Positions 2,023-31,404 of a stretch of DNA of 31,807 nucleotides are shown piece by piece. Origin of the DNA: a virus. Taxonomy: Duplodnaviria > Caudoviricetes. Under the pieces are notes generated by a model that was not told the DNA's origin, did not search any database, and saw only the letters and a list, made by a program, of their open reading frames with translations. The stretch's first letter is position 1. Every line of letters starts with the position of its first letter. Both the position numbers and the translations under genes were made by a program. The stretch lies in IMG/VR virus record IMGVR_UViG_3300010376_000097, positions 1-31,807 of that record; one strand, given 5' to 3'.

Positions 2023-2103
2023 TCATGGCTCTTGCAGCAACCACCAGAGGAAGACGGCGCCCAGGCAGGCCATGACGATCGCGAAGCCCTCGCTGTAGCT
2101 CAT
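2023..2103 (-). CDS. 26-aa membrane peptide
   Basis: MSYSEGFAIVMACLGAVFLWWLLQEP, ATGA-coupled, fills the gap exactly. Confidence 0.55.
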   Translation of the reverse strand: MSYSEGFAIVMACLGAVFLWWLLQEP

Positions 2104-2927
2104 CTGCTTCTGGCCATGTCTTCGTGCTTCCAGCCCCTGATCCAGGCATTATGCTGGGCGGGTGCCAGGCGTTCGTTATAGGGGTTGGTGGCAATGGTCC
2201 GATCCAGCTTCCTCGACCGCGTCCCTTGAAGGAAAGCGCTCGCCGTCTCCTGCGTTTGTTCGAAGACTTCGTTGCCCGCCGCGGCGGCCTGGTCCGGACC
2301 CTGTTCCTCGCCTTCCTCTTCGTCTGGCTCGTCATCTTCTGGTTCGTCATCATCCGGCCCTGGCACGGGATCGCGGGGAGGTGACGCCGCCGCCGCGGAG
2401 ATCTCGTCCAGCCTTTGCTGGATCTCCTGCTGCATGGGTGACATCTCCGGGGGCTTCGCGTCACCTTGACGGGGCGTGGCGGAATCCGGCTTGGATTTCG
2501 GCTCGATCTCCGCCAGGCCGTCGAAAGTGAACTGAAAGCCCAGCGGAATATTGGTCAGCCGGGCCATGCGCAGGCGTTCGCTGATCTCCCGATCGACATC
2601 GAGCGGATCTCGGCGGAGCGCTTCCAGGGTCCAAGCGATCTCTGTCGCCCCGACTCTCCGGGCGTCCTTTACCAGCTGGGCATAGACGCGATAGGCCGAT
2701 CGATAATCCTGCTTTTTCCTCTCCGCCTCCAAGAAGGCCAGCCTGCCGCGCTCCAGAAACTCCAGGCGCGTGGCATCGGAGACGTTGCCCCCAGGTGCCC
2801 GGCGCCCCTGGCGCGCTTCCTGGGGCTCCGCAGCGGCTCTGGGGCGGGGCGGGGAGCCATCCTTGCGGGGGCGACCCCGCGGGCGCTTGGGCTTGAGGCT
2901 CATCGAGCCTGGGGTCAATCGTTCCAT
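2100..2927 (-). CDS. Protein with AT-hook, helical domain, acidic linker and C-terminal Rmf-like domain
   Basis: SD AGGAG before ATG 2927; KRPRGRPRK; C-terminal AFLQG...NPY...AWIRGW. Confidence 0.7.
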   Translation of the reverse strand: MERLTPGSMSLKPKRPRGRPRKDGSPPRPRAAAEPQEARQGRRAPGGNVSDATRLEFLERGRLAFLEAERKKQDYRSAYRVYAQLVKDARRVGATEIAWTLEALRRDPLDVDREISERLRMARLTNIPLGFQFTFDGLAEIEPKSKPDSATPRQGDAKPPEMSPMQQEIQQRLDEISAAAASPPRDPVPGPDDDEPEDDEPDEEEGEEQGPDQAAAAGNEVFEQTQETASAFLQGTRSRKLDRTIATNPYNERLAPAQHNAWIRGWKHEDMARSR

Positions 2928-3394
2928 GGGGCATCTCCTATGAATATTTGGCACGCCGTGCATTTTCCGCCTTGGTTATCCATCGGCAGTTTTGCGGATT
3001 ATAGCCCTGGCAATTGTCAACGCGATCGATCGACAGCCCCAATTGGTAGCCATTGGCCAAAGCCCAATCGCGAAAGGCTTCAAAGGCCTGCCATTCCGGG
3101 CAAATCGTTATGCCCTTGTCGCCATAATATTTTTTGTAATTGGGACGCGTGCTGGCCGCACGATTTTGCCATATCGGCCATCAGCGACTTCATGTCCCGC
3201 CATCTCGATAGGTTGCCATATTTTAAAAAATACACCAGCATCCTGGGATTGGCGCGAGGGGAGGCCAGGTGTTCCCCCAAGTCGCCGGGCCACGACCGCG
3301 CCGATAGCTCGCTACGCCGGATTCCCTCGCCAGGGAGGCGTCAAACGGACAAATGCCTCGCTCTTTTGAGTTCTCTCGGGGCGGCGGGCCTTAT

Positions 3395-22582: not shown

Positions 22583-23563
22583 TTACTGATTCCCGTAGCC
22601 GCTCTCGGGCACGTTCCACGGCCCGATGAGGCCAAGGTCTGGATCGGGCGAGATCGACAGGATGCCGGCACCGCCGTCATTCGCCACGTAGACATCCGCG
22701 GCGCGCTCATATTCATCGAACTCAGTGCTGTAGTCATAGCCGAAGCGCTTCAGCATGCGCCATCTGACGCCCAGTTCGATGATGTACTCATCGAGCTTGC
22801 AGCCATCGGTGTCGGCCTGCCAGTCCTTTTGCGGATTGCCAAGGGCGGAAAGGATGGGCGAATTGCTGTTGTACTCGAACACCAGCTGCGAGCCGACATC
22901 GGTGGGCGTCGGATCGATGAAAAAGTAGGTGACGCCAAGCTGTGGATTCGGAATGTTATCCGGCCCCATCAAGGTGATGTGCTGCTTCACTCTCCAGCGC
23001 CGCTGAATGCTCGCCTTGCCCATCATCGAGGATTTGTATAGCTGCCACTGCTGCGGCGTCATCGGCCCGCGCATGGCCCAGAAGCGGCTGCGATCCCACA
23101 TGGTGCTGTCAACGAAGCTCTTAAAATCTGTCGGCAGCTGATAGCCAGCCTGGCCGAAGACATGACGCTGCGCGAGGCCTCCCGCGGTCGCGTTCTGATT
23201 CATCGTTATCTGGGTTGGGCTGTCCACGCTTTGAATGATCGAGTTATTCGGGAACATATTGCCCGCGTAGTTGAAGATGCCGGCTTGCAGCCCCACGGTG
23301 GTGGAACAGTTGCTGATGATGCTCCCGCCCAGTGTCACGTCGCCCGTGATCGTTACGGCATTGGTGGTGAAATTCCACTCGCTGATGAGCGCGGTCCAAC
23401 CTCCGTTATTGTGACGGATGAGATCCTCCACGCTGCGCCTGGCACAGGTGAGGAGCGCGATCGCCGTCTGATCCGGATTATTGATGATCGCCGGCATCTG
23501 GGGGAAGGAGGTGTCCCCCACAGCGTTGGCGCACAAAGTTAAAAGTGACGTAGGTGCCTCCAT
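22583..23563 (-). CDS. Head-tail adaptor protein
   Basis: SLLTLC N-terminus, YQLP.DF...MWDR, LG..WR..K..G.DY motifs; synteny. Confidence 0.7.
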   Translation of the reverse strand: MEAPTSLLTLCANAVGDTSFPQMPAIINNPDQTAIALLTCARRSVEDLIRHNNGGWTALISEWNFTTNAVTITGDVTLGGSIISNCSTTVGLQAGIFNYAGNMFPNNSIIQSVDSPTQITMNQNATAGGLAQRHVFGQAGYQLPTDFKSFVDSTMWDRSRFWAMRGPMTPQQWQLYKSSMMGKASIQRRWRVKQHITLMGPDNIPNPQLGVTYFFIDPTPTDVGSQLVFEYNSNSPILSALGNPQKDWQADTDGCKLDEYIIELGVRWRMLKRFGYDYSTEFDEYERAADVYVANDGGAGILSISPDPDLGLIGPWNVPESGYGNQ

Positions 23564-24069
23564 ATAAGGTGGCGCCTAACCCTGCTGATGGTGTTATTCG
23601 ATACACCAAAACGCTCAGCAAGGCGCACGCCGGGTTCATGGGATGCGCGGATATACTCCACGTCGGCTTCCGTCAGTTTAGCCATGTGATGTTCTTCGCC
23701 ATGCCTCGTTCGTTGGCGATGCCAAGGCTGCCAATCCATTCGCCCCTTTGCGGCAGCGTCTTGCATGTTGTCAGTGTAGGTGCCGAGAAAAAGATGGTCG
23801 GGATTGACACAGCCCGGCACATCGCAGTGATGGCAAATGACCATCCCTTCTGGGATAGGACCATTGAACAGGTGCCATGCGGCGACATGGCCGCAGACAT
23901 TGCCAGAGCCACGCGAGCCCGCTCCTCGTGGTCGAAGATCGGAGTAGTGGAAGCCCGCGTAGCCAGTTTTTTGGTAATGATGCCCCATCCAGAGCCAGCA
24001 TCCGGAATCTCGGTCGAGATAGACCTTCTCCATAAAGCGCTGAAGAGGATCGGTGCGCGGCCTCGCCAT
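23539..24069 (-). CDS. Free-standing HNH endonuclease with C-terminal HTH
   Basis: CWLW.G...CHHCDVPGCVNPDHLFLGTYTDNMQDA; AKLTE...LAERFGVS. Confidence 0.92.
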   Translation of the reverse strand: MARPRTDPLQRFMEKVYLDRDSGCWLWMGHHYQKTGYAGFHYSDLRPRGAGSRGSGNVCGHVAAWHLFNGPIPEGMVICHHCDVPGCVNPDHLFLGTYTDNMQDAAAKGRMDWQPWHRQRTRHGEEHHMAKLTEADVEYIRASHEPGVRLAERFGVSNNTISRVRRHLIWRHLRHF

Positions 24070-24725: not shown

Positions 24726-25463
24726 TTATGCGGCTTCCGGCGAGGGCCGGATTGCAGCGAAGCTCGCGAGCGGATCGACGGGTACTGCCGGCTGCGGCAG
24801 CATCGCCGCCGGCTGCGCTGGGACAAGGTTGGCGAAGGGGTCAACCTGGCCGGGGATGATCTGGGCGATGTTGGGCCGGTTGGCGAGGCCCTGGATCTGA
24901 AGCTGCATGCCAGATATCAGCCCCTTCAATTCGGTGATCTGCTGCTTCGCTTCGATTAGCTCGATGCTCAGTTGATCATTCTGGGCCATCAGAGTCTTCG
25001 TCATGGCGTTGCGCTGGGCAGAGTCGAGGAAGGCTTTCGCCAGGTCGCGCAGCTGGCGGGCACCCATGCCAAGCTTCGTGAGATTGTAGTCGCTCACCTC
25101 CGCCATTTGCTCCACGGTCCAGATGTCGTTGTGCTTGAGGAACAACACCTGGGCCTTGGAATGAACCATCGGCCACATGTCGATCGGCGTGCCCTCGTGG
25201 GCCATTTCCTGGCCCTTCTTGAAGCGCTCATAGGCCTCTGGCCAGCGCATGCGATGCTCGTCATTGACCCTTTCCACCGGCACCGACAGCGAGTTGCCGG
25301 GGATGTGAATCTTGACTCTCTCCTCGTCCCTGTAGATCGGATGACCCTGCCGCTGCGTGGCCAACTCATCGAGAACGGCTTCGGTGTAGAACTCGGGGAA
25401 AGTCGGATCGCGATTATCGCCGAAGCGCTCGGTGCGAGTGAAAGCGCCGGTCTGGATTTCCAT
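24726..25463 (-). CDS. Conserved phage virion-module protein
   Basis: SD GAGG; GTP...WP...TVEQ.A motif then coiled coil. Confidence 0.7.
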   Translation of the reverse strand: MEIQTGAFTRTERFGDNRDPTFPEFYTEAVLDELATQRQGHPIYRDEERVKIHIPGNSLSVPVERVNDEHRMRWPEAYERFKKGQEMAHEGTPIDMWPMVHSKAQVLFLKHNDIWTVEQMAEVSDYNLTKLGMGARQLRDLAKAFLDSAQRNAMTKTLMAQNDQLSIELIEAKQQITELKGLISGMQLQIQGLANRPNIAQIIPGQVDPFANLVPAQPAAMLPQPAVPVDPLASFAAIRPSPEAA

Positions 25464-26686: not shown

Positions 26687-26849
26687 TCAGGCTGTGATGA
26701 CGCCCTGCAAGAAACGATTGGACATCGTCAAGTTACCGGCCCAGCCAATTAGTTTGATCATCGCATCTTGATTGATCGAGAAGCGATTCGGATCTAGCGG
26801 GACCATGTTCCGGCGGGTGTGCGGGCGGTAGAAAAGGTAGTTCGTGTTG
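26687..26849 (-). CDS. Major capsid protein exon 2
   Basis: NTNYLFYRPH...NQDAMIKLIGWAGNLTMSNRFLQGVITA-stop, a capsid C-terminus without its own start; not in ORF track. Confidence 0.92.
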
Positions 26850-27602
26850 CAAGCTGTTAGCCCCTAATGTAATCTCTGTCACGAGCCTACATTAAGTCGG
26901 CTGGTCATTTCTGCCAGCCTCTGCATGTTCCCATGCAGATCGGAGCACATCTTCCCTTTCGGGGCTGGCCCATGCTCTCTACGCACGCCCGGCGATTACT
27001 CGCCTGCTTGGTTCGGGATTACCCTTCCGCGCCCTTTCGGGCCGGGCATCGGGTTTCCCCCGACTTCGCCAGCATATCGTCTGCTTCTCTCGGAAGAGGC
27101 GAACATGCTTGATGTTCGATATGTGGCTGGCCTCTTCGATGGTGATGGCTATGTCAGGATCAATCGGTGGGAGAAGCCGGAAAGCACGCATATCCGGTAC
27201 AACATCCACGCTGGCATCAACATGACCCATCGTCCCATCATCGAGGACTTGCATCGACAGTTCGCCGGCAATCTGCACAAGACCCGGCGCCCATCGATAA
27301 AGCCGACGCATCGAACGCTCTACAGTTGGACTGTCACAAGCGCCGCCGCTGCGGCGTTCCTGCGGCTGATCCGTCCGCACTGCATCGTCAAGGCGGATGA
27401 GATCGATATCGCCCTTAAGCTTCAGGACTCAATCGATGAGTGGAATCACCGCCTTGGCTGGCATTACGGTGTGCATCCTCGGCGACCAGAGATAAGAGCT
27501 TATCGCGAGAGGTTGTTCGCCGAGATTGCAGAACTCAAACGTGTTCGCTTCGATCCTACTTAGGCAGCGAGCCCATGCGGCAGATCGTCGTTTGCCGCGT
27601 TA
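26850..27602 (-). ncRNA. Group I self-splicing intron (753 nt)
   Basis: 5' exon ends in U, intron ends in G; P3 GCUGGC/GCCAGC, P4 UCGGG/CCCGA, P7 GAGCA/UGCUC, P8 CCC-GAAA-GGG, P9 CUGCAUG-GGAA-CAUGCAG; removal restores the frame. Confidence 0.93.
27105..27563 (+). CDS. Single-motif LAGLIDADG homing endonuclease, antisense within the intron
   Basis: YVAGLFDGDG motif, FL..I.PHCIVK; SD GAGG before ATG 27105. Confidence 0.92.
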   Translation: MLDVRYVAGLFDGDGYVRINRWEKPESTHIRYNIHAGINMTHRPIIEDLHRQFAGNLHKTRRPSIKPTHRTLYSWTVTSAAAAAFLRLIRPHCIVKADEIDIALKLQDSIDEWNHRLGWHYGVHPRRPEIRAYRERLFAEIAELKRVRFDPT

Positions 27603-28471
27603 AGCGCGTACATATGATTAGTTGGTGCGCCGGCACCAGAGAGCCACGAGCCGCCCGTGCCGAGAGCGGAGACGTTACCCGCAGCATTGCCTTGAAAACC
27701 GCCGTCATACACAACATCGGCCTGCATGAATTTGAGCCTCATGAAGCCGGCCATGCCGTCGTCTTCCTGCTGTATTCTCTGTATCGCCTGGAGGCTTTCC
27801 AAGTAATACCGAAAATACGTATTATCCGCGATCCAGAGGTCGGGGTAGTCCTGCCCTCGCGCCTGGTTGAGCCAGGTGCGATTCATCATCGTCTGCATGG
27901 TCGAGGCGCCCGGCGTCAAACCCGCGGTGGCGAAGGACGAGACGTTGTCCCTCCAGAAGGCCCACACGCTGGTGTCGATGCCGCCGATCGTGCCGCTGTT
28001 GTTCACGTCAGCGACGAGAAGCTGCAAGCCACCGATCTGCTTGCCGCCCGAAGCGCTGCCGTTTGAGTAGCAGTCGTTGGAGAGGTTGTTCTGGAAGGTG
28101 CGCTCGGCGTTGCCAATGCGCGACTCCAGCAGATTGATCATGCGCTCCTTTCCGTCGTTCTGAATTTCCTCAAGGCCGCTGATCGAGACAGCCACCGCTG
28201 CCTGGGCGATCGGGAACTGTGCAGCCGTGAAGACATCGCTGGGACTTACATTGAGAATATCATAGCCCGAATATCTCTGATAAGTCCCATTTTCGGAATA
28301 TTCCATTTCCTGCACTATAGCCTGACCGCCATCAAATGTTCTGATGTTGCCTTTTCTTTGAAGGCGGCGTAGAAGTGCGTTGTTCTTGGTCACGTTGTCG
28401 GCGAGTTCACCACTTCTGTTGAAAAGTGTAGTCGTGGTGATTTCTCCCCAGTTGACATTTGGGATAGCCAT
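27603..28471 (-). CDS. Major capsid protein exon 1 (spliced product 343 aa)
   Basis: LADNV..NNALL, YSGYD.L, SISGLEE.QN.G.E..I.LLE.R capsid motifs; SD GAGGAG. Confidence 0.93.
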
Positions 28472-29871: not shown

Positions 29872-30132
29872 TCAGCGAGCGGCGCCCGTGGCCCCCGTTG
29901 CCCCCGTTGCCCCGGTATCGCCGGCAGGCGGCGGCTCCGTCGCCTCGACGGCGGCTTTCACGCGGCCCATGGCGGCGCCCACCTTCAGGTCGTTCGCCCA
30001 GTGATCCACGATGCCGGCGGTCTTCATCAGTTCGAGAAGCTCCTTGGCGGCGTCGTGAAGCTCGTCGGTGGCGGCATCGCGTGTGCTTGGGCCGGCGGCC
30101 CCGGTGACGGTGGTGCGAGTGACGGTGACCAT
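29872..30132 (-). CDS. Small protein with short collagen-like tail
   Basis: SD AGGAG; GDT(GAT)3GAA. Confidence 0.65.
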   Translation of the reverse strand: MVTVTRTTVTGAAGPSTRDAATDELHDAAKELLELMKTAGIVDHWANDLKVGAAMGRVKAAVEATEPPPAGDTGATGATGATGAAR

Positions 30133-30181: not shown

Positions 30182-30578
30182 ACTCTTCCTCGTCGCCGAG
30201 ATCCTCGCCCACCTGGCGCGCGGAGCGCTTGATGGCATTGCGGACGCTCTTGCCCTTCGGCGGAGCTTCCTCCTCTTCTTCCTCGGGTTCGTGAGGCTCA
30301 ACGTGGAGCTTGTGCATCTGCACGCGAACGCGGCTGTCCTTGCCGTTGTCGCCGGGACCGACGCTGTCAACGACGCCATGGCCGCGGAACTTCACGGGCG
30401 TATTGCGCCCCGGCGGCTGGTCGCCAAACATCTTCTGGGCGTGGTCCCCGCTCACATGAAAGGAGGCGTCGGGCGGATAGTCGCTGGGCGGGCCGCCGAT
30501 GATGAAGCCCGCCCTGCCCTTGCCTTCGCTCTTGCCGCCCTTCGATGCGCGCTTCAGATCAACCAATTTGCTACCCAT
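30180..30578 (-). CDS. Capsid staple-like protein (epsilon15 gp10-like)
   Basis: KLVDLKR...YP...PP...V.SV...RV.VQ pattern; SD AAGGAG. Confidence 0.5.
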   Translation of the reverse strand: MGSKLVDLKRASKGGKSEGKGRAGFIIGGPPSDYPPDASFHVSGDHAQKMFGDQPPGRNTPVKFRGHGVVDSVGPGDNGKDSRVRVQMHKLHVEPHEPEEEEEEAPPKGKSVRNAIKRSARQVGEDLGDEEE

Positions 30579-30921
30579 CGATCTCTCCTTCCGTACCGGC
30601 GACCTTCCTGCCGCCGCCCTGGCTGACTTGCTCATAGGCTCGCTCGATCGCGTCCCGGCGGCTCTGCGTGGTCATGGCGGAGCTTTCCGGCGCCTGGTCG
30701 AGCGGCTGTCCGCGGCTGTACTCATTTCCAACCTCGATGAGCCTGTGGGCTCGGAGATGATCCCTGTGGGCAGAGCGGGAGTGGATTCTTTCCCCGGTGA
30801 ACATCGAGCGGTATGGGTCGATGTCGCGCATAATGAGCGGTGCCAGGGGGCGCGGGCGCGGTGCGTTTGGATCGTACTCGGCCCAGCGAAAACTCTCACG
30901 ATCCCAGAAGTACTTGGGCAC
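30571..30921 (-). CDS. Conserved phage protein (GTG start)
   Basis: SD AAGGAG; DI.PY.S..TGE.I.SRS.HR.HL......EVGNE. Confidence 0.75.
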   Translation of the reverse strand: MPKYFWDRESFRWAEYDPNAPRPRPLAPLIMRDIDPYRSMFTGERIHSRSAHRDHLRAHRLIEVGNEYSRGQPLDQAPESSAMTTQSRRDAIERAYEQVSQGGGRKVAGTEGEIDG

Positions 30922-30951
30922 ATTGGCTCCTTCCTGATAGTATTCGATCCC

Positions 30952-31404
30952 ATGCCATACAGCGATCCGGAGAAACGACGAGCCTGTTGGCGGCGCTACG
31001 CCAAGAGTGAACGGGGTCGCGAATCTGCGCGGAGATACCGGACTTCGGCCAAAGGGCAAGCCACATACAAGGCTTGTCTGGAGCGGTGGTGCGCTACCTC
31101 CGAGGGCAGAGCATCACGAAGAGAGGCCAGCAGGAAATACGAGGCGAAGCCTAAGAGTGAGGCCGTCCAGGAACGCAAGCGTGAGCGTGACCGGCTTTAT
31201 CGCAAGGCCAATCGAGACAAGAAACGAGCGCAGCACATTCTCCAGCGCGCCGTGAAGCGTGGCCTTATCCAGAGCCACCCCTGCGAAGCCTGTGGCGCCC
31301 CGGCTGAAGCACATCACGATGACTATTCCAAGCCGCTTGAGGTACGATGGCTCTGTCACAGCCATCACTCCTGGCACCATCGGGGCCACGGGCCTTACGT
31401 TTAG
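30952..31404 (+). CDS. HNH-like endonuclease, antisense to the virion operon
   Basis: CEACG..AEAHHDDYSKPLEVRWLC..HH; basic helical N-terminus. Confidence 0.85.
   Translation: MPYSDPEKRRACWRRYAKSERGRESARRYRTSAKGQATYKACLERWCATSEGRASRREASRKYEAKPKSEAVQERKRERDRLYRKANRDKKRAQHILQRAVKRGLIQSHPCEACGAPAEAHHDDYSKPLEVRWLCHSHHSWHHRGHGPYV

Follow-up and report, generated by a model that had tools for sequence, protein, structure and literature searches.

Why does the major capsid protein gene of a tailed phage appear to end in a peptide resembling a tmRNA tag, with the remainder of the capsid C-terminus found 753 bases further on? The gene lies on the minus strand of the window, i.e. the whole stretch of DNA analysed here (31,807 nucleotides of the Caudoviricetes record IMGVR_UViG_3300010376_000097), and its open reading frame (28471..27560, 303 aa) has the C-terminus ...HMYALNAANDDLPHGLAA-stop. 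A first-pass annotation had proposed that a group I intron hard-codes an SsrA-like degradation tag onto the unspliced product, and the tag codons that it quoted at the end of the capsid frame are exact. Our main reading, to which we assign a probability of roughly 0.7 on the basis of sequence comparison, is that the first 43 bases of the intron extend the capsid frame with a tmRNA-like tail that is likely a built-in, selected degron. The feature belongs to a broader pattern, in which two kinds of degron-like ending are seen.

Exon 1 (27603..28471, minus strand) comprises residues 1-289 and two bases of the Leu290 codon; it was delimited by a match to phrog_9953 (major head protein, E 3e-87), the splice point and the capsid fold. 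The intron (26850..27602, minus strand; 753 nt) starts after a U and ends with a G, as indicated by the in-silico junction, the core helices and intronless relatives, and exon 2 (26687..26849, minus strand) supplies the last base of codon 290, residues 291-343 and the stop, in line with the C-termini of intronless relatives. Excision of 27602..26850 in silico restores the host reading frame and gives a 343-aa product, which is exactly as long as P0026, a member of the cluster that lacks the intron. The 5' splice site is placed inside the Leu290 codon, with the U at 27603 as the exon end and omega-G at 26850. The interval 27560..27602, to which the tag had been assigned, is exactly the intron-coded part; Asn291 is intron-coded too, so that the tail comprises 13 residues (Asn plus the 12-mer). 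With the junction inside Leu290, an exon 1 ending at Asn291 is ruled out, as are a group II intron or a frameshift by the U|...G| ends and the group I core. Intronless capsid relatives bridge the insertion site in two runs, intron inserts are present in 5 of 86 capsid loci (intronless alleles predominate), and contigs from two soil DNA runs, X2 and X3, carry the tag unchanged; one of these runs may be the source sample.

The proposed group I identity was upheld by a covarying core. The predicted ribozyme core (P3-P9; 26850..27073, minus strand) has its P7 strands at 26977-26973 and 26947-26943 and lacks the P7.1/P7.2 insertion. Across 11 related introns, helices P3, P4, P5, P7, P8, P9 and P9.1 are paired in 95.2% of cells and 20 of 36 core pairs show double-sided change, a level of pairing reached by 0 of 500 shuffles and set against 32-39% in slid controls; the core structure was drawn from the window sequence, which makes control (b) lenient, and P6 is outside the count. 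In all nine same-site introns P1 pairs 1-3 are kept with compensatory changes despite differing exons, pair 4 is mismatched, and a U.G pair stands at the 5' splice site. An Rfam scan of the window gave 0 matches at gathering and three chance matches (E 3.5-5.3), with the group I model unmatched; we read this as divergence from the model, the covariation being direct evidence of a group I intron. The 753-nt element is thus a group I intron by its conserved pairing, and its splicing is predicted. Its core had no match among annotated phages, and a promoter and terminator scan remained at chance level. An unanchored automatic finder of splice sites and guide sequences misplaced known sites, including that of the window, and its overlap counts were discarded.

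Between P1 and the ribozyme core lies an antisense ORF of 152 aa (27105..27563, plus strand), a predicted LAGLIDADG-type homing endonuclease preceded by the Shine-Dalgarno-like sequence GGAAGAGG at 27092-27099. It contains the AGLFDG motif (as AGLFDGDG) and matches phrog_5046, whose PHROG label reads HNH; the window ORF has no Pfam match, and its relatives match LAGLIDADG_1 (5/14) and LAGLIDADG_3 (3/14). A single-sequence query with the endonuclease found no viral loci. Its stop codon and that of the tag overlap tail to tail at 27560-27563. Some of the endonuclease protein relatives extend further and end in GPM, residues that would be read from the strand opposite the AUG/guide segment described below, and the intron endonucleases of L010 and L578 end in Ala-Ala (PIPNAA and KPFAA; 2 of 13 looked at). 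Two other endonuclease-like ORFs occur in the window, one (30499-31404, plus strand; phrog_2340) antisense to head genes and seemingly between genes, the other (23539-24069, minus strand) an HNH_3 protein.

Reading through from exon 1, the unspliced frame appends (L)N-AANDDLPHGLAA-stop (27560..27602, minus strand), and the tmRNA-like part, from AND to LAA, begins at 27595. As had been noted from the sequence, the read-through ends in an ssrA-like tag: it has the AND start and a free C-terminal LAA directly before the stop, i.e. the hydrophobic-Ala-Ala end of ssrA-like ClpX degrons. ClpX binds the last three residues of the tmRNA tag and SspB its N-terminus (PMC3064785). Terminal AA is required but insufficient for degradation, and H-G-L-A-A misses positions -5 and -4 of the consensus [LFYW]-[LAR]-L-A-A from an E. 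coli screen (PMC10862746). The same bases also have roles in the RNA. A P1-loop hairpin (27577..27598, minus strand) is predicted by MFE folding, and at the corresponding place in several same-site relatives; it carries Ala-Ala on the 5' strand of its 6-bp stem and Asn-Asp-Asp in its unpaired 10-nt loop. The tag codons His-Gly-Leu-Ala overlap the P10 partner (AUG) and the internal guide sequence (27568..27576, minus strand), assigned from P1 pairs 1-3, as well as a family-conserved CT. Of the tag features proposed to match, AND, LAA and the length of 11 residues agree; position 4 is Asp, and LAA is partly dictated by the RNA, part of it being written by the guide.

The tag is more than chance would be expected to give. 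In 14,940 residues, read in three frames around 90 tails, AND occurs three times, one of them in frame, and this one is the window tag. Simulated tails end in AA in 2.4% of cases with the window geometry fixed and in 0.4% with free geometry, a His-type ending appears in 0.3-0.6% and AND in about 0.1%; with the guide sequence fixed, AND plus AA arises at 2.5e-6 to 1.3e-5. The tag is also the only AND[NDE] in a long ORF of the window. Elsewhere in the window, one ORF ends in PEAA (24726-25463, minus strand) and another in GAAR (29872-30132, minus strand), and the C-terminal part of a third (2100-2963, minus strand) gives a sub-threshold match (E 1.2e-5) to the Pfam family RMF (ribosome modulation factor).

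Would the machinery for such a tag be present in the host? From the labels and bins of metagenome-assembled genomes, the host likely belongs to the Alphaproteobacteria: among capsids carried by genomes, the nearest come from alphaproteobacterial MAGs (68% and 92% over 59 residues), and capsids of such MAGs reach 81-83% to P0350, a same-site relative. Alphaproteobacterial tmRNA frames begin with AND and span 10-13 residues in 31 of 32 loci; 30 of 31 tags end in AA, and the commonest length, 11 residues (14/31), is that of the window tag counted from AND. Its AND matches 31/31 of these tags and its Asp at position 4 matches 0/31 (Asn 30, Gln 1), while ANDN, the SspB-type motif of the host group, is present in the relatives P0132 and P0350. 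SspB is confined to certain proteobacteria (PMC8138137); an SspB-alpha-like gene, matching PDB 2qas, 2qaz and 2nys, adjoins the tmRNA in 23 of 32 alphaproteobacterial loci (L537-L569). No tmRNA was found in the window (ARAGORN 0 genes, Rfam 0), and the element itself is ruled out as a tmRNA gene, the tRNA-like domain and the tmRNA fold being absent; only the tag is alike.

Since a single case is weak proof for LAA, a comparative test was needed. Introns were gathered blind to their tails, by way of endonuclease relatives, capsid relatives and patterns in the core; the last of these yielded 122 and 121 loci from viruses and 43 from genomes. A capsid HMM trained on 166 full-length proteins served to assign exon 1, or else mid-profile PHROG matches were read by hand. 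This gave 90 distinct tails, 35 in the capsid family of the window and 55 elsewhere. Left out were 78 of 177 candidates, among them all genome-collection loci (outside the PHROG scan); six capsid loci extending more than 16 residues past the profile, by frameshift or long tail (L025, L096, L097, L320, L419, L447), were left out, as were upstream ORFs without a PHROG match, including the AA-ending L234 and L242.

Read-through tails end in Ala-Ala in 24 of 90 cases (two of them non-blind, the window itself and L359, which was added by hand once its tail was seen) and in [LIV]-His in 13 of 90 (a class defined post hoc, with 7 of the 13 from one site or an adjacent codon). Out-of-frame stops in the same RNA regions gave 1/617 and 2/617, respectively, and later in-frame stops 3/201 and 1/201; among natural C-termini AA is fairly common in these phages (28/522) and [LIV]H is found in 2/522. 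Where the last residue is Ala, the preceding one is also Ala in 24/35 tails versus 4/53 controls, and where it is His, L, I or V precedes in 13/16 versus 3/13. All four Ala codons are used at both positions, and all three stops. Related tails are non-independent and kinship inflates the AA and His counts; of 40 hand-collapsed sites, 12 have AA and 5 have the His type, and drawing one random tail per site gave a mean of 8.2/40 AA (P 0.001 against the natural rate). Neither ending is present in 53 of the 90 tails. The enrichment for AAND...AA endings that the first-pass annotation had suggested looking for is thus seen for the terminal AA, while the full AAND...AA form is rare. Truncated capsid proteins known without DNA ended in AA in 25/75 and in the His type in 10/75, contig ends being indistinguishable from stops in these. 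Virion-structural host genes have AA or His tails in 36/70 cases versus 1/20 in other genes, or, by site, in 14/27 versus 1/13, intron lineage and host gene being confounded in both comparisons. Trees of 16 cores and 13 endonucleases had no resolution, hence no order of events was inferred.

The site of the window allows a closer comparison. Fifteen tails map to Leu290 (10 from DNA, 5 protein-only), of which ten end in Val-His or Ile-His, one in TTIQ and four have the form AND...AA: the window, P0025 (AANDDQPHGLAA), P0132 (AANDNFVAIGVAA) and P0350 (ANDNGSVQIAA), the last three known as proteins without DNA. These four represent three lineages, in which AND[ND] and [LVI]AA flank middle parts that are unrelated, and the length counted from AND is 11-12 residues. 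The expected conservation of AAND and LAA in relatives was therefore found in part, AND...AA recurring in P0132 and P0350 in different tails and most same-site relatives having a hydrophobic-His end instead. The latter are mostly T-V-H or T-I-H, with CAC or CAT as the His codon and TGA, TAG or TAA as the stop. A tail-blind DNA pattern returned 10 loci, among which the three new same-site introns were two of the His type and one of neither. A DNA pattern designed to find AAND introns at this site had 0 matches in viruses and yielded no second DNA copy of the full tag; its two genome matches, L533 and L534, are chance hits outside capsid genes. Both AA and His endings are present at capsid sites about 69, 106, 138 and 290, and at site 138 the tails KPRYALAA, RPQYALAA, RFHYAVAA and RPTFALAA vary upstream and keep an ssrA-type end, with RLIH alongside. 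From this enrichment, AA (ClpX-type) and His (Lon-type) endings would seem to be interchangeable at one site.

The endings could also be a by-product of constraints on the RNA (the guide sequence, GC-rich P1/P2 stems, GNRA stop loops, the endonuclease stop), with the early stop alone under selection. Early in-frame stops in group I introns are already accounted for by the exclusion of ribosomes from the core (PMC3073962). The overlap of Gly-Leu-Ala with the guide sequence fits such an explanation, as do the G-TAA or G-TGA present in 10 of 24 AA tails, which would suit a GNRA loop, and the stop located in the 3' hairpin strand of the His-type relatives. AA codons lie mostly in RNA stems, according to pairing profiles; however, a structure-matched control (a stem, then a stop in the loop) gave AA in 3/139 cases versus 19/38 tails, and the out-of-frame control (1/617) is low as well. 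The spread over synonymous codons, with His kept through both of its codons and all three stops, and the position of N-D-D in an unpaired loop also argue against it, and the simulated frequencies given above stand against 14 of 15 same-site tails. We consider an RNA by-product unlikely.

As to its origin, recombination with the tmRNA gene of a host might have brought in the tag, which may by now be a relic in decay; this would be compatible with a degron role. It shares 23 of 36 bases with frames of the ANDNNRLALAA type, with equal length and identical last four codons, and P0350 starts directly with AND, the second Ala being absent. The guide sequence, however, also accounts for the shared Leu and Ala codons, the five codons in the middle differ, and no tmRNA was found in the window. 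Moreover, none of 31 tmRNAs has an Ala codon just ahead of its resume codon, whereas this Ala is encoded in the window and in P0132; the encoded first Ala favours convergence, and capture of a tmRNA tag appears quite unlikely.

A selected degron would work as follows. Ribosomes on unspliced exon 1 would translate 13 codons of the P1 region before reaching the stop, releasing a 303-aa fragment; splicing would yield the 343-aa capsid protein free of the tag. Because normal termination at a stop codon would escape tmRNA tagging, the fragment would go untagged by tmRNA, and the intron would supply the tag itself. The tagged fragments would then be cleared by host ClpXP, probably with the adaptor SspB. 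The predicted fold of intronless P0026 resembles solved phage capsids (model mean pLDDT 76.7), and exon 2 corresponds to three beta-strands of this model (295-307, 319-332 and 339-342); the fragment, which lacks these strands, likely misfolds, and may do no more than that, or it might poison capsid assembly as the first-pass annotation supposed. The tag may serve to make the intron less costly to abundant virion assembly genes, whose misfolded or truncated subunits would accumulate or interfere. Capsid mRNA is presumably plentiful, which would also suit an unspliced fragment made deliberately. That the fragment is such a product (an SspB/ClpXP or Lon decoy late in infection, or a timer) could draw on the activation of Caulobacter Lon by a V-x-V-H end (PMC10665427), matched by the SVTVH and RVTVH tails, but the mobile introns that carry these tails sit at many sites with no relation to one another, intronless alleles dominate and the tag is the sole AND[NDE] in a long ORF of the window, all of which makes this highly improbable.

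The selected-degron reading has a true precedent in yeast HAC1, which is the closest known case of an intron-coded degron (PMC5114014). There too, read-through of the unspliced intron adds a short tail (10 aa in Hac1u) that is lost on splicing. Unlike here, HAC1 has one regulated, Ire1p-spliced nuclear intron, and its tail acts via Duh1p, with destruction shown (PMC5114014); the phage introns are mobile group I ribozymes whose tails appear to imitate bacterial ClpX/SspB or Lon signals. The tmRNA tag, with SspB and ClpXP (PMC9382460, PMC8138137, PMC3064785), shares the AND start, the hydrophobic-Ala-Ala end and 11 residues with the window tag. The latter is, by contrast, hard-coded in the mRNA, has its own first Ala, and involves no tRNA-like domain or trans-translation; its position 4 is Asp, that of the host-group tags Asn. 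In integration-dependent immunity, the tag of the repressor is removed on integration. Phage repressors and integrases of this system carry, like the window, an ssrA-like C-terminus hard-coded in a phage gene, but attP lies within the tagged repressor gene (PMC5559632). In the window, the tag would be lost through RNA splicing, and an aborted structural protein would be its target. The window intron is typical of group I introns with an early stop in that the exon-1 frame stops soon after the 5' splice site and before the core (PMC3073962); what it adds to that account is that the codons preceding the stop spell degron-like ends. In SIBR-Cas, an ssrA-type tag figures only as an engineered part (PMC8565351).

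The His-type ends have their own counterpart. Lon reads C-terminal x-L/I-L/I/V-H in Yersinia (PMC11986505), and in Caulobacter it reads the V86-x-V88-H89 end of LarA, a V-x-V-H end also activating the protease (PMC10665427). Same-site relatives mostly end in Val-His or Ile-His, and the tails SVTVH and RVTVH fit V-x-V-H. This signal is absent from the tail of the window itself, and the strict Yersinia motif, with L or I at the third-last position, is found in 0/13 DNA-level His tails, where this residue is mostly Thr or Ser. Our literature search, with subscription papers mostly outside it, found no report of group I introns from phages or bacteria that encode degrons, nor any publication on a complete tmRNA-like tag inside an intron or its His-type alternative.

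Many phage introns may act alike, the interrupted frame ending in Ala-Ala (ClpX type) or [LIV]-His (Lon type), as suggested by the enrichment. We find it somewhat more probable than its opposite that mobile phage group I introns practise a general quality control, carrying in their own 5' ends degrons for host proteases that are dual-coded with the guide, switching per site between the ClpXP type (up to a full tmRNA mimic for SspB plus ClpX) and the Lon type, and thereby enabling the colonisation of capsid and tape-measure genes. If true, this would add a protein-level layer to the ways in which selfish introns limit harm, with the early stop also labelling the aborted product, and would offer a testable reason for the tolerance of introns in virion assembly genes. 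For uncultured bacteria, intron tails would then amount to a natural library of C-terminal degrons, and the recently described His degron of Lon would gain support beyond its test organisms. In annotation, an LAA or VH end on a split capsid gene may flag an intron missed by Rfam. The finding is also of relevance to intron-based expression switches, in which leaky exon-1 products are undesirable.

Several minor observations concern other introns of the collection. Tails ending in hydrophobic-Asn (6/90; L518, L410, L413, L012, L187, L346) are possibly decayed His ends or a third class, and L192 and L518 have the same tail, with His in one and Asn in the other. Two introns are often present per capsid gene of the window's family (L227, L192, L411, L012, L410); both tails end in LAA in L227 and in [LV]H in L192. 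In tape-measure introns (for example L174, L215, L222, L331, L341, L349, L511, L516), several of them in Bacillota genomes, the frame ends in xAA, which by eye forms the 3' strand of a GAAA-capped P2-like hairpin, so that structure and degron are hard to separate. At capsid site 27 (L006, L099, L162) the intron follows only 27 codons and the frame stops immediately, leaving no tail; this would be expected if a degron were unnecessary for peptides of such small size.
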